From sequence record OQ680138.1: a DNA stretch of 39,968 bases, one strand, 5' to 3'. Position numbers and translations under genes: made by a program. Of this stretch, positions 1-39,936 are shown in pieces. This DNA is from Escherichia phage PH1061. Below the pieces are notes generated by a model, which ran no database searches, was not told the origin of the DNA, and was given only the letters and a program-made list of their open reading frames with translations. Numbering within the stretch: the first letter of the stretch is position 1; each line of letters opens with the position of its first letter.

Positions 1-111
1 ACTCATGGTGACTTCAGTCATCTTCACGCTAACCCACTGATATGCAAGTAATTCTGACTTAACTATCACTATAGGACTCAAGGTCTAAGACTCCAAGTGA
101 AAGACCAAAGA
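1..111. repeat. Window-end overlap: 1..111 is identical to 39858..39968 (circular-permutation or assembly wrap); includes the 3' end of the last early ORF (1..51) and a phage promoter
   Basis: Direct comparison of the first and last lines of the window: actcatggtgacttcag...caagtgaaagaccaaaga is present at both ends. Confidence 0.95.
57..79 (+). promoter_or_regulatory. Phage RNAP promoter, consensus TTAACTATCACTATAGGA, +1 G near 74, upstream of the RNAP gene
   Basis: Matches the 11-copy consensus in the unique genome; duplicate of 39914..39936. Confidence 0.7.
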
Positions 112-148
112 GACTTTAAGTGAAAGACTAATAACAAGGACTTTAAGT

Positions 149-2830
149 ATGAGCGTCATCTCCATTGACAAACACGACTTCTCCGATGTGTCGAACGCCA
201 TTGAGCCGTTTAACCTGCTGGCTGACCACTACGGGCAGGACCTTGCAGTCAAACAGCTTCAGCTTGAGCATGAGGCATACACTGAAGGCGAGCGACGTTT
301 CATCAAGAACCTTGAGCGCCAGACTGAGCGCGGGGAACTGGCAGACAATCAGGTCGCCAAGCCTTTGATGCAGACTCTGGTTCCTAAGATTGCACAAGCC
401 GTCAAGGAGTGGCACGAAGGCCAAGACGGGAAGCTGTCAACCTCTCGTCCGAGCGTAGCGTTCACCATGTTGAGCACTGAAGAGAAGGCCGTAAAGGACC
501 GCTCTCTGCGCATCTCCTGTGAGTCTGCTGCGGTTATCATACTGAAGGTCATCCTCTCCAAGCTGGTCAAGCCTGAAGGGATACCGATTACACCGATGGC
601 CTCAGCGATAGGCCGCACACTTGAGGATGAAATACGCTTCGGTCGCATCCGTGACAAGGAGCAGGAGCACTTCAAGAAGGCGATAGCTGAGAACCTGAAC
701 AAGCGAGCTGGTGCATCCTATAAGAAAGCCTACATGCAAGCGGTCGAGACCTCCATGCTGGAGCAAGGACAATTGGAAGACGCGTGGGGTACTTGGAGTC
801 CGACAGAGGCTGTCCACGTTGGCATCAAGATGCTCGAGATTGTCATCCAGTCAACACAACTGGTCGAGCTTAAGCGGTACGGTGCTGGTAATGCAGCGGC
901 TGACGTAGAGATGGTCCACCTGTCAGACTTCTGGGTCAAGAAGATGGCACAACGTGGATTCAGCCTTGCGGGTATCGCACCAGTTTATCAGCCTTGCGTC
1001 GTTCCTCCTAAGCCGTGGATGGGTGTCGTAGGTGGTGGGTACTGGGCCAAAGGTCGCAGACCGTTACCAATGATTCGCTTAGGGTCCAAGTCTGCGTTGG
1101 CACGTTATGAAGACGTGTACATGCCTGAAGTCTATGACGCTGTTAACATCATCCAGAATACACCTTGGAAAGTGAACAAGAAGGTACTGGACGTGGTGAA
1201 CATGGTCGAGAAGCTGAACAACACGCCTATTGATGACATCCCTCAAATGGAACCACTGAAGCCTGAGGACTATGCAGGTGAGACCGAGGAGGAACTCAAG
1301 GCATGGAAGAAGGCTGCGGCTGGTATCTATCGCCGCGAGAAGGCCAGACAGTCACGCAGGTTGTCACTGAGCTTTATCGTTAACCAAGCGAACAAGTTCT
1401 CTCAGTTCAAGGCCATCTGGTTCCCGTACAACATGGACTGGCGAGGTCGTGTCTACGCTGTACCGATGTTCAACCCTCAGGGTAACGACATGCAGAAGGG
1501 TCTCCTGACTCTGGCAGTCGGCAAGCCCATTGGTGCTGATGGTTTCAAATGGCTGAAGGTCCACGGTGCAAACTGTGCGGGTGTCGATAAAGTCACCTTC
1601 GAGGAGCGCATCAAGTGGGTGGAAGACCACCACGACAACATCATGGCTACTGCTAAGGCACCGATGGACAGCATTGAGTGGTGGGGAAAGTTAGACTCTC
1701 CGTTCTGCTTCCTTGCGTTCTGCTTCGAGTATGCTGGAGTAATGCATCACGGCCTGTCTTACTCATGCTCGCTACCGATAGCGTTCGATGGGTCCTGCTC
1801 TGGGATTCAGCACTTCAGCGCGATGCTGAGGGACCACGTAGGCGGACATGCAGTGAACTTAACGCCGTCTGGTCAGGTGCAGGACATCTACCGTATAGTC
1901 TCAGACCGTGTGTCAGACCAGTTGAAAGAGTTATTACTGAGCGGTACGGACGACGAGCTGGTGACCGTAGAGGACAAGAAGACTGGGGAAATCAGCGAAC
2001 GCCTGAAGCTTGGGACCAAGAGTCTTGCGCGTCAGTGGCTGGCCTACGGTATGTCACGCAAGGTCACTAAGCGTTCTGTCATGACTCTGGCCTATGGGTC
2101 GAAAGAGTACGGCTTCGCAGACCAAGTATACGAGGATATCGTGATGCCAGCGATTGACTCAGGGTCTGGCGCTATGTTCACTGAACCAAGCCAAGCGTCT
2201 CGCTTCATGGCTAAGATGATTTGGGAAGCTGTGAGTGTGACAGTAGTTGCTGCGGTTGACGCGATGAAGTGGCTTCAAGGTGCTGCCAAGTTGCTGGCTG
2301 CTGAAGTGAAGGACAAGAAGACTGGTGAAATCCTGAAGCCTTGCCTTCCGGTACACTGGGTAACACCTGATGGTTTCCCGGTCTGGCAGGAATACCGCAA
2401 GAAGGATACCACACGTTTGAACCTGATGTTCTTAGGGTCATTCAACCTTCAGCCTACAGTCAACAAAGGCACGAAGAAAGAGCTGGACAAGCACAAGCAG
2501 GAGTCAGGAATTAGCCCGAACTTCGTCCACTCACAAGATGGTAGCCACCTCCGCAAGACTGTAGTTCACACGCATCGCAAGTATGGCGTGATGTCATTCG
2601 CAGTGATTCACGATAGCTTCGGGACCATCCCGGCTGACGCTGAGTATCTGTTCCGTGGTGTCCGTGAGACGATGGTAGAGACCTACCGCGACAACGATGT
2701 GCTGCTTGACTTCTACGAGCAGTTTGAATACCAGCTTCACGAGAGCCAGCGCGACAAGTTGCCTGAGCTTCCGAAGAAAGGTAAACTGAATATTGAAGAC
2801 ATCTTGTCTTCAGACTTTGCATTCGCTTAA
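149..2830 (+). CDS. 1: Single-subunit DNA-directed RNA polymerase (T7 gene 1 homolog), 893 aa
   Basis: Near-colinear with T7 RNAP from memory; motifs DGSCSGIQHFSAMLRD, HDSFGT and C-terminal FAFA present. Confidence 0.97.
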   Translation: MSVISIDKHDFSDVSNAIEPFNLLADHYGQDLAVKQLQLEHEAYTEGERRFIKNLERQTERGELADNQVAKPLMQTLVPKIAQAVKEWHEGQDGKLSTSRPSVAFTMLSTEEKAVKDRSLRISCESAAVIILKVILSKLVKPEGIPITPMASAIGRTLEDEIRFGRIRDKEQEHFKKAIAENLNKRAGASYKKAYMQAVETSMLEQGQLEDAWGTWSPTEAVHVGIKMLEIVIQSTQLVELKRYGAGNAAADVEMVHLSDFWVKKMAQRGFSLAGIAPVYQPCVVPPKPWMGVVGGGYWAKGRRPLPMIRLGSKSALARYEDVYMPEVYDAVNIIQNTPWKVNKKVLDVVNMVEKLNNTPIDDIPQMEPLKPEDYAGETEEELKAWKKAAAGIYRREKARQSRRLSLSFIVNQANKFSQFKAIWFPYNMDWRGRVYAVPMFNPQGNDMQKGLLTLAVGKPIGADGFKWLKVHGANCAGVDKVTFEERIKWVEDHHDNIMATAKAPMDSIEWWGKLDSPFCFLAFCFEYAGVMHHGLSYSCSLPIAFDGSCSGIQHFSAMLRDHVGGHAVNLTPSGQVQDIYRIVSDRVSDQLKELLLSGTDDELVTVEDKKTGEISERLKLGTKSLARQWLAYGMSRKVTKRSVMTLAYGSKEYGFADQVYEDIVMPAIDSGSGAMFTEPSQASRFMAKMIWEAVSVTVVAAVDAMKWLQGAAKLLAAEVKDKKTGEILKPCLPVHWVTPDGFPVWQEYRKKDTTRLNLMFLGSFNLQPTVNKGTKKELDKHKQESGISPNFVHSQDGSHLRKTVVHTHRKYGVMSFAVIHDSFGTIPADAEYLFRGVRETMVETYRDNDVLLDFYEQFEYQLHESQRDKLPELPKKGKLNIEDILSSDFAFA

Positions 2831-2845
2831 CAGGAGAAGAAGTAT

Positions 2846-3076
2846 ATGTCAATGAAACTTGTAGCACACAATAGAGTATTCAACGATGGGTCGGGAACTT
2901 GCCATGTAGAGCTGACTTATAAGGATTTAGTCATTCTCCGAGACAGATTACAAGCTGGTGTGACCGGGTGGATTCAACCTAACGAGTACAGCCTTATAGC
3001 CTCGATTGATGAAGTGCTTAAAGCGTGGATGGAAGACGAGCGCACTCAATATCCGTCATTCCCTATTATTAGATAA
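2846..3076 (+). CDS. Hypothetical protein, 76 aa, between gene 1 and gene 1.1 (no T7 counterpart recalled)
   Basis: ORF with RBS AGGAGAAGAAGTAT before ATG; tightly packed after RNAP. Confidence 0.6.
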   Translation: MSMKLVAHNRVFNDGSGTCHVELTYKDLVILRDRLQAGVTGWIQPNEYSLIASIDEVLKAWMEDERTQYPSFPIIR

Positions 3077-3086
3077 GGAGAGAGTT

Positions 3087-3376: not shown

Positions 3377-3399
3377 CCTAAACTATCACTATAGGATTA
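3377..3399 (+). promoter_or_regulatory. Phage RNAP promoter (phi1.1-like), CTAAACTATCACTATAGGA, +1 near 3394
   Basis: Consensus match. Confidence 0.8.
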
Positions 3400-3919: not shown

Positions 3920-4942
3920 ATGACAACTATTAAAACTAACCCGCACCGCGCTGTAGATTACTCTGAGTCTGGTATTAAGAAGGCTCTGGAAGCTGCCGGG
4001 TCTCTAGAAGCTGAAGTGAAGTACGATGGTGTACGGTTGAACCTCCCGGTGCTTCGAGAGGGTGAGACCTATTGGTTAAGCCGTGAGTCTAAACCACTGC
4101 CAGCACTTGAGTGGATGAACTCTGAGTTAGGCAATGCGTGGACTCAGGCTGACTGGAGGTGGTTCCTTCGTCAAGCTGGCTATGAAGGTATCGGCCTTAT
4201 GATTGACGGCGAGGTCATGGTCAAAGGTGTTGACTTTAATACGTCCTCAGGTCTCATCCGAACGAAGTGGCTCAAGCCTAACAACGAGGAGTTCGCTGAA
4301 TGCTATCCGGGCCGTGGCAAGAAGGTCCCGTTCTGGGTAGCCAGGTCACGACTTCAGGTTGTGGTATATGGCGTTGTCGATATGACAACCATAGCAGACC
4401 CGAAAGCCGAAGGTCCTATCCATAGCGTCACACGCCTGAAGGCCGAAGCTATCGTCCCTCTCCTCCAGAAATACTTCCCGGAAATCGACTGGGTATTATC
4501 TGAGAGTCATACAGTGTTTAGCTTAGACGAGCTTACTGACTTGTATGAGAAGAAGAGAGAAGAGGGCCATGAGGGTCTGGTGGTTAAAGACCCACTTGGA
4601 CGCTGGAAGCGTGGCAAGAAGTCAGGTATGTTCAAGATGAAACCAAGCGAAGAGGCGGACGGTCACGTTGTGCGCCCTGTGTGGGGTACGGATGGCCTAG
4701 CCAACGAAGGCATGGTCATCGGATTTGACGTGATGCTCGAGAACGGGATGGAGGTCTCCGCAACTAACATTAGTCGCGCCCTTATGTCTGAGTTCACCGA
4801 AAACGTTAAGTCCGACCCTGATTATTATAAAGGCTGGGCCTGCCAGATTACCTACATGGAGGAGACACCAAGTGGCTTACTACGGCATCCCTCGTTCGAC
4901 CGGTGGCGTGGAACTGAGGACGACCCTACGGTCAAGATTTAA
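3920..4942 (+). CDS. 1.3: ATP-dependent DNA ligase, 340 aa
   Basis: Adenylation motif KYDGVR (EVKYDGVRLN); position after gene 1.2 as in T7. Confidence 0.9.
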   Translation: MTTIKTNPHRAVDYSESGIKKALEAAGSLEAEVKYDGVRLNLPVLREGETYWLSRESKPLPALEWMNSELGNAWTQADWRWFLRQAGYEGIGLMIDGEVMVKGVDFNTSSGLIRTKWLKPNNEEFAECYPGRGKKVPFWVARSRLQVVVYGVVDMTTIADPKAEGPIHSVTRLKAEAIVPLLQKYFPEIDWVLSESHTVFSLDELTDLYEKKREEGHEGLVVKDPLGRWKRGKKSGMFKMKPSEEADGHVVRPVWGTDGLANEGMVIGFDVMLENGMEVSATNISRALMSEFTENVKSDPDYYKGWACQITYMEETPSGLLRHPSFDRWRGTEDDPTVKI

Positions 4943-4952
4943 AGCAGACAGG

Positions 4953-5333
4953 ATGGCTCCCTCTGGAGTCTCCAACCTAAACGGTAGACATCTTGGTTAT
5001 AGACGAAAGGATGGGTACTGGATTCTAAGTACGACAAAGGGCCAACTGCTGGCCCACCGAGTAGTCTGGGAACTAACCCACGGCCAGATACCAGAAGGGA
5101 TGGTGATTGATCATATCAACCGGGACCCTTCGGATAACAGGATTGAGAACCTCAGGTGTGTGACTCAGGCGGTGAACCTCACTAACGTTCCAACCCGTAG
5201 TCACTGCCAATCTGGAGAGAAATACGTTCAATACCAGAAATCAACTGGTCGCTGGCAACTGAGGATAAAGCGTAAGTCATACGGTACGTTCGATACCATA
5301 GCCGAGGCGGTAGCCTTAAGAGATTCATTATAA
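4953..5333 (+). CDS. HNH homing endonuclease with C-terminal AP2-type DNA-binding domain
   Basis: Motif DHINRDPSDNRIENLR followed by an AP2-like segment GEKYVQYQKSTGRWQLRIKRKSYGTFDTIAEAVALRD; start set at the first ATG after the ligase stop (track ORF begins inside ligase). Confidence 0.8.
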   Translation: MAPSGVSNLNGRHLGYRRKDGYWILSTTKGQLLAHRVVWELTHGQIPEGMVIDHINRDPSDNRIENLRCVTQAVNLTNVPTRSHCQSGEKYVQYQKSTGRWQLRIKRKSYGTFDTIAEAVALRDSL

Positions 5334-5339
5334 CGTCAA

Positions 5340-5378
5340 CCCAGTGGTCTCATGACTGCTGGGTTTCTCTGCTTTGTG
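5340..5378 (+). terminator. Rho-independent terminator (early terminator TE analog): 10-bp stem CCCAGUGGUC / GACUGCUGGG, loop UCAU, then U-rich tail
   Basis: Read from sequence; located after ligase/HNH as T7 TE follows gene 1.3. Confidence 0.65.
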
Positions 5379-5411: not shown

Positions 5412-5434
5412 CCTAAGCTATCACTATAGGACAA
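5412..5434 (+). promoter_or_regulatory. Phage RNAP promoter variant, TAAGCTATCACTATAGGA, +1 near 5429
   Basis: One mismatch to consensus at about -13. Confidence 0.7.
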
Positions 5435-6237: not shown

Positions 6238-6396
6238 ATGAGCCTTGAAGAGAAGAAATACATCGTGGAGCTTGAGGGTCGCGTTCAGTCCTTCGAGGTT
6301 CCGGTGTACGCAAAGTCTCTTGAAGAGGCTACCCTGAAGTCCCAAGAGTATGAGGACGCTGGGTTTGTGGTCGGACGAATCCGTCCTGAGACCTAA
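6238..6396 (+). CDS. 2: Gp2-like inhibitor of host RNA polymerase, 52 aa
   Basis: [14 protein letters not shown] matches T7 gp2 SFEVPIYAETLDEA; strong RBS GGAAGGAGAAAGGACT; the track ORF's GTG start at 6175 is less likely. Confidence 0.8.
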
Positions 6397-6414
6397 ACTA
6401 TCACTGTAGGACAG
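6392..6414 (+). promoter_or_regulatory. Phage RNAP promoter variant (phi2.5-like), CTAAACTATCACTGTAGGA, +1 near 6409
   Basis: One mismatch (-3 A to G); overlaps the gp2 stop codon. Confidence 0.65.
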
Positions 6415-7604: not shown

Positions 7605-8059
7605 TGACTACCTGTAAAGACCTTGAAGTTGGAACACGTTACAGATTCTCAAAGAACACCCTGCTGAATAATCCCCAATTCACTGATGCTGTTTTCGAAA
7701 AGCGAGAAGACCATAGCGTAATTGTGGAGAAGGGGTGGCATCCTGAGGATTACATCGGTGAGACTACCAGCTGGAATGGTCACGAGACCTACAGTGTAGA
7801 AGTTGTTGAACAGCCTCAGGTCCTTCCAGCTTCAAGTGTCCCTCCTGTCACCGTTAAACGTGAAGTCCTGACCATCAACAAGATTGGTGTAGGTCAGACG
7901 TTCATCGTCCACGGTAAGCCTGACGAAGTGTACGTGAAGATTAGCAACTCTCACGTCTTCAACCACAAGCGACTCCAGATGCACACGACTGACGCACAGC
8001 GCTTCCAGTCACATCTGAATCTGGTGGTAGTAGAACTAGTTGTTTATAATGGAAAGTGA
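7604..8059 (+). CDS. Hypothetical protein, 151 aa, between endonuclease I and lysozyme (no T7 counterpart)
   Basis: ORF with ATGA-type coupling to gene 3 and RBS AAAGGAG; no recognisable motif. Confidence 0.6.
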   Translation: MTTCKDLEVGTRYRFSKNTLLNNPQFTDAVFEKREDHSVIVEKGWHPEDYIGETTSWNGHETYSVEVVEQPQVLPASSVPPVTVKREVLTINKIGVGQTFIVHGKPDEVYVKISNSHVFNHKRLQMHTTDAQRFQSHLNLVVVELVVYNGK

Positions 8060-8420
8060 CTGCATCGAGTGGGCTAAGAGTCGCAATAAGGATGGCTATG
8101 GTAGACGTAAATTCCGTGGTCAATCTATGGGTGCTCATAGAGCAGCTTGGATAGAGACCAATGGTGCTATACCGGGAGGTCTTGTCGTAAGACACAAGTG
8201 TGATAACCGTGCATGCGTAAACATTGAGCACCTTGAGTTGGGGACTCAGGCAGAAAACATGATGGACTGCTCAGTACGCAGGACATTTAATTCAAAACTA
8301 ACTGAAGATGACGTTGAGGATATTCGCACCTCAAGCGAGACCCTTAAGTTTATGGCTGAAAAATACTCAGTAAGTGAGACAACCATAAGTCGAATCAGGA
8401 ACCACAAGAGGTGGAAATAA
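8049..8420 (+). CDS. HNH homing endonuclease (family B), about 123 aa
   Basis: Motif RHKCDNRACVNIEHLELGTQAEN; lower GC than surroundings; paralog of 26877..27326. Confidence 0.8.
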   Translation: MESDCIEWAKSRNKDGYGRRKFRGQSMGAHRAAWIETNGAIPGGLVVRHKCDNRACVNIEHLELGTQAENMMDCSVRRTFNSKLTEDDVEDIRTSSETLKFMAEKYSVSETTISRIRNHKRWK

Positions 8421-9209: not shown

Positions 9210-9417
9210 ACTTATCGAATTTCTTGGTCGCCTGGTGGTGCGTGGTTATCGTCGTGCTGCGGTACTGGAACGAAAGGTAGAAAAGAAGACTGCTGACGGT
9301 GCGGCTGAGGCTGCTGCTTTGGCTGACAAGCTGACCATCGCGTCACTGGAAGCTGGCATGAAGGCACGTCAAGCTGACACCAAAGCTGACCAGTTGGCTC
9401 AGTTCTTCAAAGACTAA
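9202..9417 (+). CDS. Hypothetical protein, 71 aa
   Basis: ORF with RBS; Ala/Lys-rich predicted helical protein. Confidence 0.55.
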   Translation: MIKLIEFLGRLVVRGYRRAAVLERKVEKKTADGAAEAAALADKLTIASLEAGMKARQADTKADQLAQFFKD

Positions 9418-9435
9418 ACTATCACCTTAGGGATG
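9413..9435 (+). promoter_or_regulatory. Phage RNAP promoter variant (phi4-like), CTAAACTATCACCTTAGGGA
   Basis: Two mismatches at -4/-3 relative to consensus; located upstream of primase-helicase. Confidence 0.5.
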
Positions 9436-11403: not shown

Positions 11404-11428
11404 AAGGTCATTCACATCGAGTGGCCTT
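11404..11428 (+). promoter_or_regulatory. RNase III-type processing hairpin (R4.7-like): 10-bp stem AAGGUCAUUC / GAGUGGCCUU
   Basis: Paralog of 3405 and 34622 hairpins with conserved flanks TAGACTCAAGG and ATGATTA. Confidence 0.65.
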
Positions 11429-11456
11429 TATGATTAGACTAAACGGAGGATTAACC

Positions 11457-15128: not shown

Positions 15129-15151
15129 ACTAAACTATCACTATAGGGACT
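15129..15151 (+). promoter_or_regulatory. Phage RNAP promoter (phi6.5-like), CTAAACTATCACTATAGGGA
   Basis: Consensus match. Confidence 0.85.
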
Positions 15152-15212
15152 TTAGGACCTAAGATATGACTATAAGATAGACTTTAGTCTTAACTTAAAG
15201 AGGAGATTCAAG

Positions 15213-16389: not shown

Positions 16390-17958
16390 ATGGCTGAACG
16401 TGAAGGATTTGCTGCTGAAGGCGCGAAGGCAGTTTATGATAGATTGAAGAACGGACGACAGCCTTACGAGACCCGCGCACAGAACTGTGCTGCCGTGACT
16501 ATCCCATCGCTATTTCCTAAGGAGTCCGACAACTCGTCTACTGAGTACACAACTCCGTGGCAAGCTGTAGGTGCTCGCTGTTTGAATAACTTGGCTGCAA
16601 AGCTTATGCTGGCATTATTCCCTCAGTCACCGTGGATGCGACTAACAGTCTCAGAATACGAGGCCAAGACCTTGAGTCAGGACTCAGAGGCTGCTGCTCG
16701 TGTCGACGAAGGGCTGGCTATGGTCGAGCGTGTGTTGATGGCCTACATGGAGACAAACAGTTTCCGTGTGCCGTTGTTCGAAGCTCTGAAGCAGCTTATC
16801 GTCTCCGGTAACTGTTTGCTCTACATTCCAGAGCCTGAACAGGGAACCTACAGTCCTATGCGAATGTACCGCTTAGTGTCCTACGTTGTTCAACGTGATG
16901 CTTTCGGTAATATCTTGCAGATTGTGACTCTCGACAAGGTAGCGTTCAGTGCTCTACCGGAAGACGTGAAGTCTCAACTAAACGCAGACGACTATGAGCC
17001 TGACACCGAGCTTGAAGTGTATACGCACATCTATCGTCAGGACGACGAGTATCTACGCTATGAGGAAGTGGAAGGCATTGAGGTAGCAGGGACCGAGGGT
17101 TCCTACCCACTGACTGCATGTCCGTACATCCCGGTACGAATGGTTCGACTGGATGGTGAAGACTATGGTCGTTCTTACTGCGAGGAGTATCTGGGAGACC
17201 TGAACTCGCTGGAGACGATTACAGAAGCTATCACCAAAATGGCTAAGGTAGCCTCCAAGGTGGTGGGCCTCGTTAACCCGAACGGTATCACGCAACCTCG
17301 TCGTCTGAACAAGGCGGCTACAGGTGAGTTCGTGGCTGGTCGCGTCGAGGACATCAACTTCCTGCAACTGACGAAAGGTCAGGACTTTACGATTGCCAAG
17401 TCGGTGGCTGATGCTATCGAGCAACGTTTAGGCTGGGCCTTCCTTCTTAATAGTGCTGTTCAGCGTAATGCCGAGCGAGTCACTGCTGAAGAGATTCGTT
17501 ATGTTGCTGGCGAACTGGAGGCGACCTTAGGTGGCGTGTACTCAGTACAGTCACAAGAGCTTCAGCTGCCTATCGTCCGTGTGCTGATGAACCAACTTCA
17601 GTCTGCTGGCATGATTCCTGACCTTCCGAAAGAAGCGGTAGAGCCTACGGTCTCCACTGGTCTTGAAGCGTTAGGTCGTGGTCAGGACTTGGAGAAGCTG
17701 ACTCAGGCAGTCAACATGATGACCGGGCTGCAGCCTCTGCAACAGGACCCAGACATTAACTTGCCGACCCTGAAGCTGCGACTGCTGAATGCCTTAGGCA
17801 TTGACACCGCTGGCCTACTCCTGACGCAAGACGAGAAGATGCAACGTATTGCTGAACAATCCGCTCAAGGAGCTGTGATCAACGGTGCGTCTGCTGCTGG
17901 TGCTAACATGGGTGCTGCTGTAGGTCAGGGAGCTGGTGAGGACATGGCTCAAGCCTAA
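16390..17958 (+). CDS. 8: Head-tail connector (portal) protein, 522 aa
   Basis: Size and position of T7 gp8; strong RBS TAAGGAGG; precedes scaffold and capsid. Confidence 0.9.
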   Translation: MAEREGFAAEGAKAVYDRLKNGRQPYETRAQNCAAVTIPSLFPKESDNSSTEYTTPWQAVGARCLNNLAAKLMLALFPQSPWMRLTVSEYEAKTLSQDSEAAARVDEGLAMVERVLMAYMETNSFRVPLFEALKQLIVSGNCLLYIPEPEQGTYSPMRMYRLVSYVVQRDAFGNILQIVTLDKVAFSALPEDVKSQLNADDYEPDTELEVYTHIYRQDDEYLRYEEVEGIEVAGTEGSYPLTACPYIPVRMVRLDGEDYGRSYCEEYLGDLNSLETITEAITKMAKVASKVVGLVNPNGITQPRRLNKAATGEFVAGRVEDINFLQLTKGQDFTIAKSVADAIEQRLGWAFLLNSAVQRNAERVTAEEIRYVAGELEATLGGVYSVQSQELQLPIVRVLMNQLQSAGMIPDLPKEAVEPTVSTGLEALGRGQDLEKLTQAVNMMTGLQPLQQDPDINLPTLKLRLLNALGIDTAGLLLTQDEKMQRIAEQSAQGAVINGASAAGANMGAAVGQGAGEDMAQA

Positions 17959-17976
17959 ACTATCACTATAGGAACT
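17954..17976 (+). promoter_or_regulatory. Phage RNAP promoter (phi9-like), CTAAACTATCACTATAGGAA
   Basis: Consensus match; overlaps the portal stop codon. Confidence 0.85.
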
Positions 17977-18941: not shown

Positions 18942-18964
18942 ACTAAACTATCACTATAGGGAGA
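18942..18964 (+). promoter_or_regulatory. Phage RNAP promoter (phi10-like, strongest consensus), CTAAACTATCACTATAGGGAGA, followed by a 5' leader stem-loop
   Basis: Full consensus including GGGAGA start; leader GGGAGACC...GGUUUCCC stem-loop resembles the T7 phi10 leader. Confidence 0.9.
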
Positions 18965-20234: not shown

Positions 20235-20240
20235 TTGAAA

Positions 20241-20277
20241 CCCCTTGGGTGCCTTCGGGTGCTTGAGGGGTTTTTTT
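20241..20277 (+). terminator. Tphi-like late terminator: CCCCUUGGGUGCCUUCGGGUGCUUGAGGGG followed by UUUUUUU
   Basis: Close resemblance to T7 Tphi (AACCCCTTGGGGCCTCTAAACGGGTCTTGAGGGGTTTTTTG) and same position after gene 10. Confidence 0.9.
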
Positions 20278-20298
20278 GCTTAAAGTGAGAGGAGACTT

Positions 20299-20865: not shown

Positions 20866-21092
20866 TGGCTAGTCACAACCTGAAGATTCACCGCCGGCAC
20901 TTTGGTCCGGTACAGCTAGGTATAAAGACAGCAGAGCTGAGACTTAACGACCGGGACTTTAAGGTTGGCGATTGGCTTATCCTGAATGAGTGGGACAACG
21001 GGTATACTGGACAACAGGTAGCGCGTAAGGTTATCCACATTGCTGACGTTGGTGACATCGCTGAAGGATACGTCCTAATGAGTATGATTTAA
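20865..21092 (+). CDS. Small ASCH/PUA-like (DUF3850-type) protein, 75 aa, inserted between tail tubular genes 11 and 12
   Basis: Pattern HNLKIH..HFGPVQLGIKTAELRLNDRDFKVGDWLILNEWD...EGYVLMSM fits DUF3850 as recalled; ATGA-type overlap with the gene 11 stop. Confidence 0.6.
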   Translation: MASHNLKIHRRHFGPVQLGIKTAELRLNDRDFKVGDWLILNEWDNGYTGQQVARKVIHIADVGDIAEGYVLMSMI

Positions 21093-23483: not shown

Positions 23484-23506
23484 CCTTAACTATCACTATA
23501 GGGACT
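23484..23506 (+). promoter_or_regulatory. Phage RNAP promoter (phi13-like), CCTTAACTATCACTATAGGGA
   Basis: Consensus match. Confidence 0.85.
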
Positions 23507-26876: not shown

Positions 26877-27326
26877 ATGAAGAACGGGACAGCCAGTGAG
26901 AGACTGGCAGAACTGTCAGTAACCGAAGAGTCTGGCTGTATCCGCTTCACCGGAAGCATTGAGAAGTCCGGTTATGGAAGGATAATGATTAATAGGGTAA
27001 AATATGGAGCGCATAGACTTGCTTACGAGCTTGCTAATGGTCCTATACCCGATGGGTACGTTGTTCGCCATAAATGCGACAACCCGTCCTGTATAAACCC
27101 AAGCCACCTTGAAGTTGGCACACAAGCTGACAACATAAAGGATAAGGTGACTAGAGGTCGCCAAGCATCAGGATGCTCCATAGGAGTATCTAAGCTCACT
27201 GAGGAAATTGTGAGAGACATAAGGTCCAGCGACCTAAAGGTTTCACTCTTGGCGGAACGATATGGAGTGAGTACGGTTTCTATTAGAAATATATTGAGGA
27301 GAAAGACATGGCAACACGTGGTGTAA
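26877..27326 (+). CDS. HNH homing endonuclease (family B), 149 aa, inserted between genes 15 and 16
   Basis: Motif RHKCDNPSCINPSHLEVGTQADN; paralog of 8049..8420; lower GC. Confidence 0.8.
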   Translation: MKNGTASERLAELSVTEESGCIRFTGSIEKSGYGRIMINRVKYGAHRLAYELANGPIPDGYVVRHKCDNPSCINPSHLEVGTQADNIKDKVTRGRQASGCSIGVSKLTEEIVRDIRSSDLKVSLLAERYGVSTVSIRNILRRKTWQHVV

Positions 27327-30300: not shown

Positions 30301-31696
30301 TCTCACTGGTCGTGCTCGACGTGATGGTGCTGACGATGCTGCCTTCGCTACCGTGATGCGTACAATGACAGACCTATCGTTCTTCTCTAAGAATGCCTAC
30401 ATGGGTGTTCAGAACTTAACGGAGATTGGTGGTATGCTATCTCGTGGTAACGTTCGTGCATTGCTACATGGAGTCCCTATATTCCGTGACCTAGCCTTCC
30501 GTAACAAGAAGGTAGGGGCCTCAGAGATTAAGGACCTGCACAACGTTATCTTCGGTAAGGAACTGGATGACTCAATCCGTCCGTCTAAACAGGATGTCAT
30601 TGACCGTCTTCGAGCGTACAGTGCCTTGAGTAAACCATCGGCTACAGCTCTTGGGACTGCCAAGTATTACACTGGTGAACTTGCAGTACGCTCTCCGTTC
30701 ACTAAAGTCCTCAACGGTACGACCAACTACCTGTTAGACGCTGGACGTCAAGGCTTCCTGTCTGACATCGTGGAGCATAGTCTGACTGGTAGTAAGCGTA
30801 AGTTCGATGACCGCTGGCTGAAGACCTCTGGTATCTCTGACGAGCAGTGGAAGGGTATTAAGTCCCTAATCCGTGAGTCAGTGACTCGTGGTCCAGACGG
30901 GAAGTATACCATCAAGGATAAGAAGGCGTTCAGTCAGGACCCAAGGGCTATGGACCTGTGGCGTATGGGTGACACCATCGCTGACGAAACGTTACTCCGG
31001 CCCCACAAGCTGTCAAACATGGACGCCAAGGCTTATGGTCCTCTCGCTAAGACTGTCCTTCAGTTTAAGAACTTCGTCATCAAGTCCATCAATGGGCGTA
31101 CCATGCGAACCTTTTATAACGCCACGAAGAACAACCGAGCGATGGATGCTGCTCTGTCCACTGTGATGTCTATGGGTCTTGCTGGTATATACTACATGGC
31201 GCAGGCACACATCAAGGCTTACGCTATGCAGGATGGTCGTGACCGTGACTACCTCAAGCAAGCTCTGGACCCGACGATGATCGGATATGCGGCTCTGTCC
31301 CGTAGTTCACATCTCGGTGGACCACTTGGGGTAGCTAACATTCTGGGTGGTATCGCTGGGTACGAGGACACTAAGATGCTCCGTTCGTCTATCCTACCTC
31401 GGTCGCCTACAGAGAAGCCTGAACGTGCCATCGCGTATGGTGCAGCTACAAGTGACCCTGTGATGAATATTGTTGGCAACTTCTTGGAGCAGGTTCCAGC
31501 TTTCGGATATGCTGCTAACGTCGGCGCTTCGGCTTACAACTTGGCTGGTTACCTCAAGGCTGATACTCGTGTCAACGAGCGTGACTACATGACCGGGATG
31601 TATAATACGTTCCGTGAACTGGTTCCGAACGACCCCATTACCCAGAAGCTGTTGCTTGGAACGTTTGAGGAGCAAGGTATCCACATCAAGGACTAA
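27308..31696 (+). CDS. 16: Internal virion protein D (gp16-like), 1462 aa, with divergent N-terminal domain and an internal coiled-coil insertion
   Basis: Long colinear blocks with T7 gp16 from STWFGFGAATEAE... to the C-terminus (for example RSPTGMQSGASGKIG, NGDIAIMAGTGKTTK, LLDAGRQG). Confidence 0.93.
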   Translation: MATRGVRNANPGNIRKSKDQWEGAIGDDGAFVIFDSPESGVRALAKNLQSYGRQGYDSIEKIINRWAPPNENDTQSYIDSVVSATGIPATQSLDLSDPDTLSSLAQAISFHETGSRYDPEVYQKGVARALNGISPKTPPVSANVFDALTEGLKAKPKVALGENLPTAAGLNIEGQTPEAPNESFGEMFYKATGETMQEREDRSTWFGFGAATEAEVKNSMVGVAIRAGQTEDSLDVIGDVFNPTRWNNHKWTREELDQIRNAGVLPQYYGVITGGSPQNLTELINLALENQKLDQEKAKAGTGAQLAAGVIGAGVDPLTYVPIAGQVGKGAKLVNKMFTVAAQSGALVGVSEMARTSVAGGDAHVAEAILGGALFGGGMTAIADGLGRALGRNTNEFAGPATRLEARETARNVDGQDLSRLPIQEGEQTFSHQGVKFADVPNEPGSVRLEDGSILIGENPLNPKTRQVFDEVIEPERAAAGVNLGGLTEIGLKLLRSENPEIRGVAADLVRSPTGMQSGASGKIGTTASDVFERLRAVDHRFYNDIDDAVTEALKDPYFQTAFWRDNSALREDVYKRSALAIEDGSGNLKAELTPGELKVYDLLKNQFDAKREMMENPAMFGRTDAQSIFPGSRFKGTYVPVVYSSQMKQLYIKELGSPESLQEAIKKSWLTSYVSRPEVKARVDEMLAEQLRASQPAAGKTVGTTPNHRSSVEAARDQMKLDDAATQASDKVAELKDVLTNAEKRVADREKKLQNSKDRLASHEAKLKELEEKLAAKPKSKTIPVKIESRKQMIETQKSHVRINTERLDYMKGQADKVRDRITKATTEAEAAVASAKGQKSSVDGQATTAGETTSGNASQAAPEVTMDMVEKYANDKAYGVSHTEQFERSSVMEENINGLVGLENNNFLEARNLFDNDMEITLPNGKPFSVNSLREWDMDKIVPAYNRRVNGDIAIMAGTGKTTKDMKYLVETMMNKAGDDGKLKGEVSTLRDTLKILTGRARRDGADDAAFATVMRTMTDLSFFSKNAYMGVQNLTEIGGMLSRGNVRALLHGVPIFRDLAFRNKKVGASEIKDLHNVIFGKELDDSIRPSKQDVIDRLRAYSALSKPSATALGTAKYYTGELAVRSPFTKVLNGTTNYLLDAGRQGFLSDIVEHSLTGSKRKFDDRWLKTSGISDEQWKGIKSLIRESVTRGPDGKYTIKDKKAFSQDPRAMDLWRMGDTIADETLLRPHKLSNMDAKAYGPLAKTVLQFKNFVIKSINGRTMRTFYNATKNNRAMDAALSTVMSMGLAGIYYMAQAHIKAYAMQDGRDRDYLKQALDPTMIGYAALSRSSHLGGPLGVANILGGIAGYEDTKMLRSSILPRSPTEKPERAIAYGAATSDPVMNIVGNFLEQVPAFGYAANVGASAYNLAGYLKADTRVNERDYMTGMYNTFRELVPNDPITQKLLLGTFEEQGIHIKD

Positions 31697-31714
31697 ACTA
31701 TCACTATAGGAAAC
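31692..31714 (+). promoter_or_regulatory. Phage RNAP promoter (phi17-like), CTAAACTATCACTATAGGAA
   Basis: Consensus match; overlaps the gp16 stop. Confidence 0.85.
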
Positions 31715-31760: not shown

Positions 31761-33881
31761 ATGTCCACTATTACACAATTCCCTTCAGGCAACACTCAGT
31801 ACAGGATTGAGTTCGACTACCTAGCCAGAACGTTTGTTGTTGTTACGCTGGTGAATAGCTCTAACCCTACCCTGAACCGTGTACTGGAAGTTGGTCGAGA
31901 TTACCGATTCCTTAATCCAACGATGATTGAGATGTTGGTTGACCAATCAGGTTTCGACATCGTTCGTATTCACCGTCAGACTGGAACTGACTTAGTAGTA
32001 GACTTCAGGAATGGCTCAGTGTTGACAGCTAGTGACCTGACCAATGCAGAGCTTCAGGCTATCCATATTGCAGAAGAAGGTCGAGACCAAACTGTTGACT
32101 TAGCGAAGGAATATGCCGATGCTGCTGGTAGCTCTGCTGGCAACGCTAAGGATAGCGAGGACGAAGCACGACGAATCGCTGCGACTATCAAGGCAGCTAG
32201 TCTAGTTGGTTATATTACCCGTCGCTCCTTCGAGAAAGGCTTCAACGTTACAACATGGAACGAGGCCCTGCTATGGGAAGAGGATGGCGATTATTACCGC
32301 TGGGATGGTACGCTTCCAAAGAACGTTCCTGCTGGCTCAACTCCTGAAACGTCTGGTGGCATTGGGTTAGGAGCGTGGGTTAGTGTCGGCGATGCTACAT
32401 TGCGCAATCAAATATCTGACCCTGACGGTGCCACTAAGTACCCAGCGTTACAAATTGCGCGTTGGCGTGATGAAGGAGATGTGCGCGGTTGGGGTACTGG
32501 CGAAGAAGGTTTTAACGCCGCGATGTCTGAGTTGTCAGCTAATGGGGGTGGCACACTATTCGTTAATGAGGATATACTCTTTACATCCCTTCCTATTATG
32601 CACAAAGAGCATGTAACTGTGCGATGGAACGCTGTAGCTAAAGTTAAGTCAGGCTTGACTGCTGAATATGCTTATATAATGGATGGTGGAGCAGATACTC
32701 CTGCATACAACAGTTCCCATCACTTTACTAAAGCTAACAAAACAAATTGCTATAACCTCTTCTTAGTAGCAGAGGATTATACAACAGGTATTTCTGCTAA
32801 AGGTGTTTGTGTGCGCCATTGCTACGAATGGACTTACGAAGGGGGGGCAATTATCGGGTTTAATAATGGAGGTTTCTACGAGACTAACAACTACGAAGGA
32901 AAAGCCAGCAAATTCACGATGGTTGTAGCTAATACAAGACTTGATAATTCTGTAGGATTTGAAAGTAATTCAACTGACAGTTGGTTTAGTGAACTTTCTC
33001 CAGTTGGTTATTCAATTGGTCTAAAGTTTAATAAGAGCGCAAATGTGGTTGATAAGGCACACCCCTGGGGTAATACAGTTAACAATCTTGTAGGCGCAAT
33101 GGGGCAGATGAATGTTGGTATTGTAATTACAGAGAACGCAGGTTTTTCTACATATTCAAATATTATTCTTGATACTCCGGTAAGGAAGAACACCAATAAG
33201 ACACCATCTAGAAGCAATGGTGGGGTTGGTGTAATTTGTGATGCATGGGACTGCGTTCTTGATGGTATTCTTGTATTACCGTCCAGACATGACACAGTAG
33301 CAAAAAGTACCTTACCAATGATCACCACTATGCAAAGATCAACAATAAAAGATTTTCAGGTTTCGGGGGAGCAGTATGTAACAGACATATGGATTTCATT
33401 TGAAAACAATTCAGGGATAGCCAGGAATCACGTTTCAGGTTATGGGTATGCTGAAAAAATGCGTACAGGAATGACCTTTGGACCCAATTCAGGGGCTGTT
33501 CTTGCAAGTGCTGATGGTGTAACGATGTCGAGCCAAACTCTGACCTCTGGAATATGGTATAACACATTAAGTTTTTCCATAGCTACAACAATAACAGCTA
33601 TACCGTCAGCAACAGGTGATGTAATTGTTAATATAACTCCTGCTTATGGCGTTAAATCTGGATTCGGTGGTACAGTTAAGGGTGGCATGTACGCATTTTA
33701 CTACGCCACAGCAAACTCAGCCAAACAATTATATGATGTTTCCTTAGAGGTAGTGTCAGATAATACCGCTAAGTTCTTATTGACATTCATAGATGGAACT
33801 ACTCGGTACGCACACTGGACAGATGTATCTAACGGTTCAGCAAGAGCCATAAGTATATCAGGAGTCATTAATATAAAATAA
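31761..33881 (+). CDS. 17: Tail fiber/tailspike, 706 aa: T7 gp17-like N-terminal adaptor domain fused to a non-T7, AT-rich C-terminal receptor-binding module
   Basis: N-terminal FDYLARTFVVVTLVN...DYRF...LQAIHIAEEGRD matches the T7 gp17 N-terminus; downstream part has no T7 similarity and a clear GC drop from about 32560. Confidence 0.9.
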   Translation: MSTITQFPSGNTQYRIEFDYLARTFVVVTLVNSSNPTLNRVLEVGRDYRFLNPTMIEMLVDQSGFDIVRIHRQTGTDLVVDFRNGSVLTASDLTNAELQAIHIAEEGRDQTVDLAKEYADAAGSSAGNAKDSEDEARRIAATIKAASLVGYITRRSFEKGFNVTTWNEALLWEEDGDYYRWDGTLPKNVPAGSTPETSGGIGLGAWVSVGDATLRNQISDPDGATKYPALQIARWRDEGDVRGWGTGEEGFNAAMSELSANGGGTLFVNEDILFTSLPIMHKEHVTVRWNAVAKVKSGLTAEYAYIMDGGADTPAYNSSHHFTKANKTNCYNLFLVAEDYTTGISAKGVCVRHCYEWTYEGGAIIGFNNGGFYETNNYEGKASKFTMVVANTRLDNSVGFESNSTDSWFSELSPVGYSIGLKFNKSANVVDKAHPWGNTVNNLVGAMGQMNVGIVITENAGFSTYSNIILDTPVRKNTNKTPSRSNGGVGVICDAWDCVLDGILVLPSRHDTVAKSTLPMITTMQRSTIKDFQVSGEQYVTDIWISFENNSGIARNHVSGYGYAEKMRTGMTFGPNSGAVLASADGVTMSSQTLTSGIWYNTLSFSIATTITAIPSATGDVIVNITPAYGVKSGFGGTVKGGMYAFYYATANSAKQLYDVSLEVVSDNTAKFLLTFIDGTTRYAHWTDVSNGSARAISISGVINIK

Positions 33882-37015: not shown

Positions 37016-37038
37016 ACTTAACTATCACTATAGGGAAG
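37016..37038 (+). promoter_or_regulatory. Phage RNAP promoter (phiOR-like), CTTAACTATCACTATAGGGAAGA
   Basis: Consensus match; lies between genes 19 and 19.5 as phiOR does in T7. Confidence 0.85.
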
Positions 37039-37437: not shown

Positions 37438-37581
37438 ACCTAAGGTCAGTTCATAGCTGACGCTACTCTACTGACCTTAGCTACTGTAGTCAAGGACCTA
37501 AAGTAACACTATAGCAGTCCATGGTCTATCCCAAGGTCTCTGACCTACGGTATTGCCTACAGTAGCAGGGACTCCTAAGGA
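37438..37581. repeat. Array of degenerate heptamers (CCTAAGG, CCTAAAG, CCTACGG, CCTACAG) preceding the predicted right terminal repeat
   Basis: Read from sequence; analogous to T7 CCTAAAG short-repeat arrays flanking the terminal repeat. Confidence 0.6.
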
Positions 37582-37618: not shown

Positions 37619-37825
37619 TCTCACAGTTCAAGAACCTCAAGTCTCCCCATAGGCCCTCTTTAAGTCCAGACCAAAGGCCCTACCCCAGTCTATCATAAGG
37701 TTAGACCGATGGTCAAGACTTCAGGTCAACGATAGGTCTAGGCTATGGCTGGAGGTCAGGACGATAGGTTGGGACTATGGGTCTTCTTTGAGTCTCTATC
37801 TGTATAGTGTTATAGTATAACATTA
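37619..37825. repeat. Predicted genome left end and terminal-repeat region (collapsed to one copy); begins TCTCACAGTT...
   Basis: TCTCACAG...CCCCATAGG... resembles the T7 left terminus (TCTCACAGTGTACGG...CCCCCATAGGGGG); exact repeat length not determinable from a single copy. Confidence 0.55.
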
Positions 37826-37828
37826 CGT

Positions 37829-38154: not shown

Positions 38155-38184
38155 TTGACAAGCAGTAACGACTTAACGTAGTAT
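38155..38184 (+). promoter_or_regulatory. Host sigma70-type early promoter (A2-like): -35 TTGACA, 18-bp spacer, -10 TAGTAT
   Basis: Upstream block GGATAGTGAAGACGCCGGG...AGTAGACAGCCTGATAAGTC resembles the T7 A1-A2 region (CAACCGGATAAGTAGACAGCCTGATAAGTCG). Confidence 0.6.
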
Positions 38185-38365: not shown

Positions 38366-38413
38366 ACTGATAGTCACTAACACACACACAAACAACTTTG
38401 AGAGGATATAACT

Positions 38414-38923: not shown

Positions 38924-39078
38924 TGGTAACTTATGGTCTCTGCCAGCACCACGTCACCAACGCCCGGATTATAGTAAAGATCGGGCGGTTAAACCACGAT
39001 GAGGCTATGCGTCTACTTAAAGTGGTCTACAGGAGACGCAAGCGTATACACGACAGTTTGCACTCTGAGGACAAGTAA
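38923..39078 (+). CDS. Small early protein, 51 aa, translationally coupled to gene 0.3 (TAATG)
   Basis: Start overlaps the Ocr stop; basic protein; below track cutoff. Confidence 0.45.
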   Translation: MVTYGLCQHHVTNARIIVKIGRLNHDEAMRLLKVVYRRRKRIHDSLHSEDK

Positions 39079-39080
39079 AC

Positions 39081-39206
39081 ATGTGCCAGATAACTTATAG
39101 CAGTGAACAGGCGTTCTACGATGGGTGCTACGAGATGATGAAGCGAGGGGCTTGCTACGTGGCTAATCACCATAGCTTGACCATAACGCTGACTGGTGGG
39201 TACTGA
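39081..39206 (+). CDS. Possible small early protein, 41 aa
   Basis: ATG 3 nt after the previous stop with GAGGA upstream. Confidence 0.3.
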   Translation: MCQITYSSEQAFYDGCYEMMKRGACYVANHHSLTITLTGGY

Positions 39207-39277
39207 GTGATAAACGAGAGGTCATCTGACTGATAGGTGGCCTCAAAGATTATCACTTAAATTGATAGGAGTTAACT

Positions 39278-39382
39278 ATGAGTACTGCAATCATCTGGAC
39301 CATCTCAGGCTTCGTAGCGTGGGGAATGTTTACTCTGGTCAGCAAGCTTCCGGTCATGACTCAACTCTTCTGGGGTTTATGA
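39278..39382 (+). CDS. Small hydrophobic early peptide, 34 aa (MSTAIIWTISGFVAWGMFTLVSKLPVMTQLFWGL)
   Basis: Strong RBS TAGGAG 7 nt before ATG; single predicted TM helix. Confidence 0.5.
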   Translation: MSTAIIWTISGFVAWGMFTLVSKLPVMTQLFWGL

Positions 39383-39582
39383 CTATGAGTCTTGCACTAT
39401 TGATAGCCATATGCTATGGACTTATCGCCTACGTGCTGGGGAGAGACATCAACAAAGCGCGTAAGGTCTACAAATTCAACTATGTACGTCTGGGTCGCTG
39501 GACTGTACGTCAACCTAACGGGCGATTCATGCGCAACTTAGCGAACGTCTGGGATATAGCAACTCTTGGGAGCAAACTGTAA
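39379..39582 (+). CDS. Small early membrane protein, 67 aa
   Basis: ATGA overlap with the preceding peptide; hydrophobic N-terminus SLALLIAICYGLIAYVLG; the track's TTG start at 39262 is less likely. Confidence 0.5.
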   Translation: MTMSLALLIAICYGLIAYVLGRDINKARKVYKFNYVRLGRWTVRQPNGRFMRNLANVWDIATLGSKL

Positions 39583-39908
39583 TGAGTAAATCTTATGGCA
39601 TCAACTTGGTCCATGCATTTGACGCAGACCTTAATCTGCTTTCAGCACTAGCTACAGGCTACCGTCACGGGACCTCAAGTCACACCATTCGTCAACAGCA
39701 GGAGCGTGACCGTGTACTACAGGCACGACTACGGGCCGAGGGACATAAGGCCGAGCTGATGTGTCTGGCGTATGGTGGACGACCAATCACCGACGATGGT
39801 AAACTTCTGGTCTCAGGCTGGAAGGCGATAGACCAACGGTCAACCATCAAGCACACGACTCATGGTGACTTCAGTCATCTTCACGCTAACCCACTGATAT
39901 GCAAGTAA
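39582..39908 (+). CDS. Hypothetical early protein, 108 aa, at the position of T7 gene 0.7; no protein-kinase motifs
   Basis: TAATG coupling with the previous ORF; the 3' end is duplicated at window positions 1..51. Confidence 0.6.
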   Translation: MSKSYGINLVHAFDADLNLLSALATGYRHGTSSHTIRQQQERDRVLQARLRAEGHKAELMCLAYGGRPITDDGKLLVSGWKAIDQRSTIKHTTHGDFSHLHANPLICK

Positions 39909-39913
39909 TTCTG

Positions 39914-39936
39914 ACTTAACTATCACTATAGGACTC
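39914..39936 (+). promoter_or_regulatory. Phage RNAP promoter upstream of the RNAP gene (same element as 57..79)
   Basis: TTAACTATCACTATAGGA. Confidence 0.7.

Follow-up and report, generated by a model that had tools for sequence, protein, structure and literature searches.

The window analysed here is the whole 39,968-nucleotide stretch of the Escherichia phage PH1061 record (OQ680138.1). It comprises a complete Kayfunavirus genome, with approximately 93% nucleotide identity to many Kayfunavirus records across approximately 90-91% of the first 20 kb, the part of the window from which this figure was taken. Gene-by-gene comparison recovered 39 of the 41 K1F proteins in the same order, and by its sequence PH1061 is a K1F-like coliphage of the genus Kayfunavirus (Autographiviridae, Studiervirinae) whose genome was assembled in circular form. 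The window ends with an exact repeat of its first 111 bases, corresponding to the overlap of the circular assembly. The physical genome's direct terminal repeat is present as one collapsed copy: the K1F left end aligns from position 37619 of the window and the K1F right end up to position 37796. K1F has a terminal repeat of equal length and place, of exactly 178 bp when its genome ends are compared; the published length is 179 bp (PMC4925675). The two phages differ in their tail spikes, where only the first 260 aa of the PH1061 protein match the K1F endosialidase and the C-terminal part differs, in gp16, which carries a 173-aa insertion in PH1061, and in their sets of HNH endonuclease ORFs, the PH1061 DNA polymerase gene being uninterrupted. 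An Rfam scan at gathering thresholds and a tRNA scan of the entire window gave no matches.

Gene 1 encodes a single-subunit T7-type DNA-dependent RNA polymerase (RNAP). Its product matches the Pfam families RNA_pol (PF00940, E=1.2e-106) and RPOL_N (PF14700, E=3.5e-13) and the T7 RNAP chains 1aro and 1cez across residues 1-893 (phmmer, E=0), 1qln being also a full-length match. It is 96.9% identical to the RNAP of K1F, 93.4% to that of Ro45lw, 64.0% to that of T3 and 63.9% to that of T7, and RNAPs 95-99% identical to it are found in 168 phage records. Alignment with the T7, T3, K1F and Ro45lw enzymes showed that the catalytic residues D537, K631, Y639 and D812 (T7 numbering, used throughout) are all kept, and T7 RNAP has the same fold. 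The specificity-loop region (residues 730-780) is 100% identical to that of K1F, and that of Ro45lw has two conservative substitutions (M750L and T765S); residues 746/748/756/758 are R/N/N/Q in PH1061, K1F and Ro45lw. None of the 28 substitutions relative to K1F RNAP lies in the specificity loop or in the intercalating hairpin, and one of them (P92Q) adjoins the AT-rich recognition loop. Compared with T7, 13 residues of the specificity loop differ, including the contact residue R756, which is N in PH1061, and Q754, which is S, and the AT-rich recognition loop is likewise divergent and carries an insertion of 2 residues. The peptide FLGSFNLQPTVNKGTKKELDKHKQESG, which the earlier note had picked out as the divergent loop, is indeed present and aligns to T7 FLGQFRLQPTINTNKDSEIDAHKQESG. 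On this sequence basis, the gene 1 product is the predicted reader of the promoter set described below. A PDB sequence search turned up no structure in which a K1F-type RNAP is bound to its promoter.

A search of the window for TAAACTATCACTATAGG allowing up to 3 mismatches gave 13 matches, every one on the plus strand, whereas 0.08 matches are expected in shuffled sequence and none of 100 shuffles reached 13. The 20-base motif CT(A/T)AACTATCACTATAGG(G/A)A occurs in 11 unique copies, or 12 including the assembly overlap, all on the plus strand (Table 1; +1 is the first G of TATAGG). This agrees exactly with the number and +1 positions proposed in the earlier note. The site with +1 at 39931 is a duplicate of that at 74, because the first 111 bases recur at the window end. 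Positions -16, -15, -13, -11 to -5, -2, -1, +1 and +2 are invariant in the 11 sites, and the information content summed from -17 to +3 is approximately 35 bits. The block from -11 to -8 reads CTAT at all 11 sites, as had been claimed, versus GACT in T7 and CCCT in T3. Position -12 is A in 10 of the 11, and the set shows the K1F-type pattern of ACTATC (-12 to -7) followed by ACTATAGG, which our promoter scan found likewise in K1F, Ro45lw, SP7, PE3-1 and EFA-1. All sites lie on the coding strand, either between genes or at gene 3' ends, and 34-101 nt before the start in 9 of the 11 gene blocks. The match with +1 at 37514, which is absent from the list in the earlier note, was rejected as a twelfth promoter. 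It carries 3 mismatches (-11, -8 and +2), the first two inside the specificity block, has no above-threshold counterpart in the same five relatives, and from its sequence is probably non-functional.

Table 1. Features of the PH1061 window, with the +1 of each promoter, the +1 of its K1F counterpart and promoter labels in the deposited records of relatives.
Feature	Coordinates	Strand	+1	K1F +1	Label in records	Remarks
Promoter phi1	57..79	+	74	2491		75 nt upstream of RNAP start codon
Gene 1, RNAP	149..2830	+				893 aa
Promoter	3377..3399	+	3394	5569		upstream of gene 1.1/1.2/1.3 (ligase) block
Putative early TE-like intrinsic terminator	5338..5375	+				after ligase/HNH block, just before phi1.6
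Promoter phi1.6	5412..5434	+	5429	7200	Ro45lw (phi1.6, 7195)	variant TAAGCTATC
Promoter phi2.5	6392..6414	+	6409	8516	Ro45lw (phi2.5, 8035)	variant ACTGTAGG; upstream of ssDNA-binding protein gene
Promoter phi4	9413..9435	+	9430	10883		variant CACCTTAGG; upstream of primase/helicase
Promoter phi6.5	15129..15151	+	15146	17194	Ro45lw, PE3-1 (phi6.5)	
Promoter phi9	17954..17976	+	17971	20015	PE3-1 (phi9)	overlaps portal gene 3' end, upstream of scaffold gene
Promoter phi10	18942..18964	+	18959	21014	Ro45lw, PE3-1 (promoter)	upstream of major capsid gene
Tphi-like terminator	20237..20284	+				after capsid gene; 17-bp G+C-rich stem, then T-run
Promoter phi13	23484..23506	+	23501	25338		upstream of internal virion protein genes 13-16
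Promoter phi17	31692..31714	+	31709	32614	Ro45lw (phi17)	overlaps gene 16 stop codon, upstream of tail spike gene
phiOR-like promoter	37016..37038	+	37033	38869		last of set; approximately 590 nt left of terminal repeat
Direct terminal repeat, one collapsed copy	37619..37796	.				from K1F end alignments
phi1 duplicate from assembly overlap	39914-39936	+	39931			

The set is conserved site by site among relatives. K1F (NC_007456) has 11 promoters that are colinear with those of PH1061 and agree with them in the core and in the variants particular to each site, and SP7, PE3-1, EFA-1 and Ro45lw have counterparts at the PH1061 promoter positions, mostly with the same variants. When flanking sequences were matched, every site of K1F, SP7 and EFA-1 and 10 of the 11 PE3-1 sites paired with one PH1061 site. 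K1F, PE3-1 and EFA-1 share all three variants listed in Table 1, together with Ro45lw in the case of phi1.6, with Ro45lw and SP7 in that of phi2.5, and with SP7 in that of phi4. The depositor annotations of the Ro45lw and PE3-1 records cover phi1.6, phi2.5, phi6.5, phi9 and phi17. The weakest match of the set is phi4, where CACCTTAGG departs from the consensus at -4 and -3, and to judge from its sequence it may be weak as a promoter; phi10 alone has a complete GGGAGA start of the T7 kind. Ro45lw, which belongs to the same genus, carries one additional site, its 12th, before the DNA polymerase gene, and its phi1 and phi4 variants are weaker. More widely, over 120 viral contig stretches, mostly from genomes of approximately 40 kb, contain an exact 15-mer of the promoter.

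Two hairpins accompany the promoters. The Tphi-like hairpin folds as RNA with -25.2 kcal/mol (z = -3.9), and a terminator is annotated at this position in Ro45lw, SP7 and PE3-1. The hairpin before phi1.6 folds with -19.4 kcal/mol (z = -4.4) and, from its position and by analogy with T7 TE, would act as the early terminator. There is no enrichment of ATCTGTT, the class II pause signal of T7, with 3 matches versus 6.1 expected. For the leaders that follow phi1 and phi6.5, folding was no better than in shuffled sequences (z = -0.3 for phi1, -0.1 for phi6.5), and we claim no RNase III-like site in them.

The general organisation is that of T7. The T7 promoters have a -7 to +2 core (CACTATAGG) identical to that of PH1061 and share its architecture, the specificity block occupying -12 to -8 and a block rich in A/T lying further upstream. 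The T7 promoter map, with phi1.6, 2.5, 6.5, 9, 10, 13, 17 and OR, matches that of PH1061, and gene 10 is followed by a Tphi-like terminator as in T7; T7 promoters number 17. At -12 to -8 PH1061 reads ACTAT and T7 CGACT, and at -16/-15 CT versus AA. The T3 promoter, in the consensus used for our scan, shares with PH1061 the architecture, the A at -12 and the C at -11. T3 reads CCCT at -11 to -8 with D748, whereas PH1061 keeps N748 and has N756, and -3 to +2 is AAAGG in T3 versus ATAGG in PH1061. Specificity would come mostly from the beta-hairpin specificity loop, which reads the major groove from -12 to -7. Of the contact residues, R746 and Q758 are kept, as are the bases presumed to face them, C (-7) and T (-8). 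In T7 the G:C pair at -9 is read by R756; PH1061 has N756 and, at -9, an A. Likewise, the change in the AT-rich loop would go in step with the invariant bases at -16 (C) and -15 (T). These residue-to-base assignments are our proposal.

The K1F-type promoter and polymerase have reportedly been recognised since the K1F genome paper of Scholl and Merril in 2005. For activity, +1 position and orthogonality we relied on published experiments. According to the 2012 study by Temme, the K1F loop grafted into T7 RNAP gave a 17-fold induction from a T7 promoter with the K1F-subfamily sequence at -12 to -7, and this graft was reported to be orthogonal to the T7, T3 and N4 variants (PMC3458549). From our scan of the K1F genome, we infer that the sequence used at -12 to -7 was ACTATC. 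A later paper describes loop-graft variants as limited in orthogonality, with residual crosstalk, and treats 748, 756 and 758 as covarying specificity residues and K1F as one of nine specificity clusters (PMC11880802). Full-length K1F RNAP with PK1F had little crosstalk with two other phage RNAPs (MmP1, VP4), the effect being approximately 46,000-fold for the cognate pair versus 6- to 27-fold for non-cognate ones (PMC12218169, 2025). Purified Ro45lw RNAP uses the minimal promoter ACTTAACTATCACTATAGGGA, and sequencing placed +1 at G (PMC12272871, Takatsuki et al. 2025), the base assumed in the earlier note; this promoter sequence equals the PH1061 phiOR site across -17 to +4 and elsewhere fits the consensus. 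The consensus CTWAACTATCACTATAGG has been reported for another Kayfunavirus (PMC13298934). Altogether, published work on the identical loop and promoter type supports by analogy that the PH1061 pair is orthogonal to T7 and T3. The accessible literature yielded no experiment in which a native Kayfunavirus RNAP was tried directly on T7 or T3 promoters.

T7-type promoters also act in replication priming and packaging, and a second role of the PH1061 repeats is thus possible. That the repeats are instead dispersed elements of some other sort, for example signals for replication, packaging or recombination, or targets of a DNA-binding regulator, is nevertheless very improbable. They keep to the coding strand and to the placement before gene blocks described above and carry the T7-family promoter core, and a purified RNAP of 93% identity transcribes from an almost identical sequence with a mapped +1 (PMC12272871). 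On these grounds we rejected a non-promoter role.

The earlier note had gone further and proposed that the phage has a specificity signature of its own, with an RNAP/promoter pair that may be orthogonal to T7 and T3. This implies a new promoter specificity class, an undescribed pair orthogonal to all characterised phage polymerases. The CTAT block is unlike the corresponding block of T7, T3, SP6 and K11, whose consensus promoters are all absent from the window when up to 3 mismatches are allowed, and the 13 loop differences from T7 fit such a new class too. However, the loop is that of K1F without a single change, each promoter has a K1F counterpart, and the consensus and the polymerase have already been published and tested (PMC3458549, PMC12272871, PMC13298934, PMC12218169). 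Identity of the consensus to characterised phage promoters, which the note itself had named as grounds for refutation, was found in two of them (PMC12272871, PMC13298934). We thus regard a new class as having next to no chance of being correct. What stands of the claim is that these are promoters of a phage RNAP with a divergent loop; the signature is not the phage's own, since it is of the K1F type and common to the genus Kayfunavirus. We are highly confident that the 11 repeats are K1F-type middle and late promoters read by the T7-type RNAP of PH1061 itself, and we found no evidence that contradicts this reading. The promoter set is real, ordinary and already known. As a discovery it carries little weight, synthetic biologists having had the pair at their disposal since 2012 and its biochemical characterisation dating from 2025; K1F-type polymerase and promoter already serve as a tool alongside T7.

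By analogy with T7, we infer the following transcription programme. The direct terminal repeat would set the left-to-right order of entry and transcription, and host RNA polymerase would act first, starting at sigma-70 promoters to the right of the repeat and reading across ocr into gene 1. The phage RNAP would then initiate at the G of TATAGG at the 11 sites, all rightward, with phi1.1 to phi6.5 serving the DNA-metabolism genes and phi6.5 to phiOR the virion, lysis and packaging genes, and transcription would partially terminate at the Tphi-like hairpin after the capsid gene. Since phi1 lies immediately before gene 1, we propose that the phage polymerase would sustain its own synthesis. To our knowledge, the T7 map has no phage promoter directly upstream of gene 1, whereas PH1061 has one. 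This promoter is conserved in the genus, with orthologues upstream of gene 1 in K1F, Ro45lw, SP7, PE3-1 and EFA-1. We consider it rather unlikely that phi1 forms a self-amplifying RNAP loop that alters the early-to-middle switch compared with T7 or, separately, that the 28 non-loop substitutions or the AT-rich loop reading C at -16 and T at -15 confer properties missed by loop-graft experiments. For annotation, the window can be described as a Kayfunavirus genome with 11 phage promoters, TE-like and Tphi-like terminators and a collapsed terminal repeat. One deposited record calls the promoter before the RNAP gene a 'host RNAP promoter'; we recommend annotating it as a phage promoter instead.

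Searching the window for TAAACTATCACTATAGG at up to 3 mismatches returned 13 matches, all on the + strand, where 0.08 were expected by chance and none of 100 dinucleotide-preserving shuffles reached 13. Twelve of these are strong sites (see the table), and because the opening 111 bases of the window recur exactly at its end, the site at 39931 is the site at 74 over again, which leaves 11 unique promoters. This count and the site positions agree exactly with those put forward in the earlier note. A position-weight scan of both strands recovered the identical 11 sites at 33 to 40 bits, with the runner-up at 12 bits. Positions -16, -15, -13, -11 to -5, -2, -1, +1, and +2 (+1 being the first G of TATAGG) were invariant in all 11 sites, and the information summed from -17 to +3 amounted to approximately 35 bits. 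The sites are either intergenic or overlap the final codons of the preceding gene, and 9 of the 11 are 34 to 101 nt ahead of the start of a gene block. Consensus promoters of T7, T3, SP6, and K11 were not found in the window at up to 3 mismatches.

The enzyme that reads these sites is the RNA polymerase (RNAP) encoded by gene 1, which showed full-length alignment to 1cez and 1qln, both structures of T7 RNAP, and conserves the catalytic residues D537, K631, Y639, and D812. Its identity is 96.9% to K1F RNAP, 93.4% to that of Ro45lw, 64.0% to T3, and 63.9% to T7, and proteins 95% to 99% identical to it are encoded by 168 phage records. Over the equivalent of T7 residues 730–780, including the specificity loop, identity with K1F RNAP is 100%, and none of the 28 differences between the 2 proteins falls in this loop or in the intercalating hairpin. 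Relative to T7, in contrast, the loop carries 13 substitutions, among them R756N and Q754S, whereas R746, N748, and Q758 are kept, and the AT-rich recognition loop has a two-residue insertion compared with both T7 and T3. From these differences, retention of R746 and Q758 may go together with C at -7 and T at -8, R756N with the change from C to A at -9, and the altered AT-rich loop with the change of -16/-15 to CT.

Positions of promoters and other features (window coordinates, except for the K1F sites)
Feature	Position	Size	Remarks
Strong sites (+1), + strand	74, 3394, 5429, 6409, 9430, 15146, 17971, 18959, 23501, 31709, 37033, 39931		motif search
K1F strong sites (+1)	2491, 5569, 7200, 8516, 10883, 17194, 20015, 21014, 25338, 32614, 38869		NC_007456 scan
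phi1	57-79		+1 = 74
RNAP (gene 1)	149-2830	893 aa	Pfam RNA_pol (E = 1e-106) and RPOL_N
Free-standing HNH_3 homing-endonuclease ORF	4872-5333		after ligase gene
TE-like hairpin	5338-5365		-19.4 kcal/mol, z = -4.4
Free-standing HNH_3 homing-endonuclease ORF	8040-8420		between genes 3 and 3.5
Weak match	15153-15184		cctaagatatgactataAG, +1 = 15175
Tphi-like hairpin	20237-20274		after capsid gene; -25.2 kcal/mol, z = -3.9
DUF3850/ASCH-domain ORF	20865-21092	75 aa	between tail genes 11 and 12
Free-standing HNH_3 homing-endonuclease ORF	26877-27326		between genes 15 and 16
Gene 16	27308-31696	1462 aa	173-aa insertion at 29378-29896
Tail spike	31761-33881	706 aa	Phage_T7_tail and Tail_spike_N domains
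Thirteenth match	37497-37519		cctaaagtaacactataGC, +1 = 37514
Octamer	37796-37803		TATCTGTA
Candidate sigma-70 promoter	38155-38184		TTGACA-18-TAGTAT

The same scan of K1F (NC_007456) detected 11 strong sites, and matching of flanking sequences paired every one of them with one site of the window. The K1F orthologues keep even site-specific variants, namely TAAGCTATC at phi1.6, ACTGTAGG at phi2.5, CACCTTAGG at phi4, and CTTAAC at phi1, phi13, and phiOR. This promoter map is common to SP7, PE3-1, EFA-1, and Ro45lw, the last with 1 extra site, and several of the relatives' sites (phi1.6, phi2.5, phi6.5, phi9, and phi17) had already been annotated by depositors. Exact copies of the 15-mer AACTATCACTATAGG were found in over 120 viral contig stretches, the majority from genomes of approximately 40 kb. 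The earlier note was right in describing the feature, which is real, and in reading it as promoters for the phage RNAP, but the novelty that it implied did not hold up: the window carries the usual K1F-type set, which is found across the genus, already known, and characterised by experiment. Such identity with a phage promoter characterised before is the result that the note itself had named as refuting.

Promoter activity of the sites and initiation at the G are taken from the literature. The purified Ro45lw RNAP uses the minimal promoter ACTTAACTATCACTATAGGGA, with the +1 placed at G by sequencing (Takatsuki et al. 2025, PMC12272871), and this promoter equals the window site at 37033 over -17 to +4. 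When the K1F loop was put into T7 RNAP and the -12 to -7 region of the T7 promoter was swapped for the K1F-subfamily consensus, induction was 17-fold and the pair was reported to be orthogonal to T7, T3, and N4 variants (Temme et al. 2012, PMC3458549); the pair was used again by Segall-Shapiro et al. 2014 (PMC4299498). Full-length K1F RNAP gave approximately 46,000-fold on its cognate PK1F versus 6- to 27-fold on MmP1/VP4 promoters (2025, PMC12218169). Zhu et al. 2025 (PMC11880802) identified 748, 756, and 758 as covarying specificity residues, placed K1F as 1 of 9 specificity clusters, and described the earlier loop grafts as just partly orthogonal. For another Kayfunavirus, the consensus CTWAACTATCACTATAGG was given in a genome note of 2026 (PMC13298934).

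The genome itself is K1F-like. Megablast with the opening 20 kb of the window retrieved 173 phage records at a coverage of 80% or more, the best at approximately 93% identity. Almost all of them belong to Escherichia phages in the genus Kayfunavirus, the K1F-like phages. With tblastn, 39 of 41 K1F proteins were found in conserved order: ocr, RNAP, ligase, 1.6, gp2, SSB, endonuclease, amidase, primase/helicase, exonuclease, portal, scaffold, capsid, tail tube, internal proteins, tail spike, holin, and terminases. The top match, MT350292.1, was deposited as 'Enterococcus phage EFA-1' with an UNVERIFIED_ORG flag and E. faecalis as host; it is a Kayfunavirus 93% identical to this coliphage-type genome, and its host assignment is doubtful.

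The left end of K1F, whose terminal repeat is 178 bp, aligns from 37619 and its right end up to 37796. The window is therefore a complete genome that was assembled in circular form, and a circular assembly is also indicated by the 111-base identity between 1-111 and 39858-39968. The circle is opened just ahead of gene 1, with the direct terminal repeat reduced to a single copy at 37619-37796, so that the physical genome begins at 37619 and measures approximately 40.0 kb. The octamer on the right edge of this repeat resembles the T7 CJ pause signal ATCTGTT, and an identical octamer is annotated as 'concatemeric junction' in the PE3-1 record. The exact T7 heptamer was not enriched in the window.

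The promoter phi1 lies 75 nt upstream of the RNAP start codon and is conserved in all 5 relatives examined. On the T7 map, no phage promoter is known ahead of gene 1. The location of phi1 in front of the RNAP gene implies that the polymerase would be able to sustain its own synthesis by positive feedback. The RefSeq record of PE3-1 labels the phi1 orthologue (2874-2896) 'host RNAP promoter', which is probably an annotation error.

Two weaker promoter-like sites were also observed. The thirteenth match, approximately 105 nt to the left of the terminal repeat, is mismatched at -11, -8, and +2, so that the specificity block is hit, and has no above-threshold counterpart in K1F, Ro45lw, SP7, PE3-1, or EFA-1. 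Such a site may be the relic of a promoter that has decayed or that had a foreign specificity. The second, a weak position-weight match (12 bits) 29 nt downstream of phi6.5, is kept in K1F and Ro45lw, and its leader folded no better than shuffles.

By analogy with T7, host RNAP would initiate to the right of the terminal repeat, at sigma-70 promoters such as the candidate at 38155-38184, pass through ocr into gene 1, and halt at the TE-like hairpin. The phage RNAP would next transcribe rightward from all 11 promoters, with readthrough past the capsid gene presumably attenuated at the Tphi-like hairpin.

Gene content differs from K1F in several places. HNH ORFs are positioned differently; the K1F DNA polymerase gene is interrupted by an HNH ORF, whereas that of the window (11421-13643) is uninterrupted. 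K1F gp16 (1295 aa) does not have the 173-aa insertion, which is charged and coiled-coil-like in appearance. Few phages (ST31, ZH4, and NC-A) carry this insertion at 83% to 98% identity, and certain phages of Klebsiella, Enterobacter, and Kosakonia have it at approximately 80%. The tail spike matches the K1F endosialidase over its N-terminal 260 aa only and differs in the C-terminal receptor-binding part; the phage is probably not specific for the K1 capsule. The small DUF3850/ASCH-domain ORF is not annotated in K1F but is present in SP7, PE3-1, and EFA-1.
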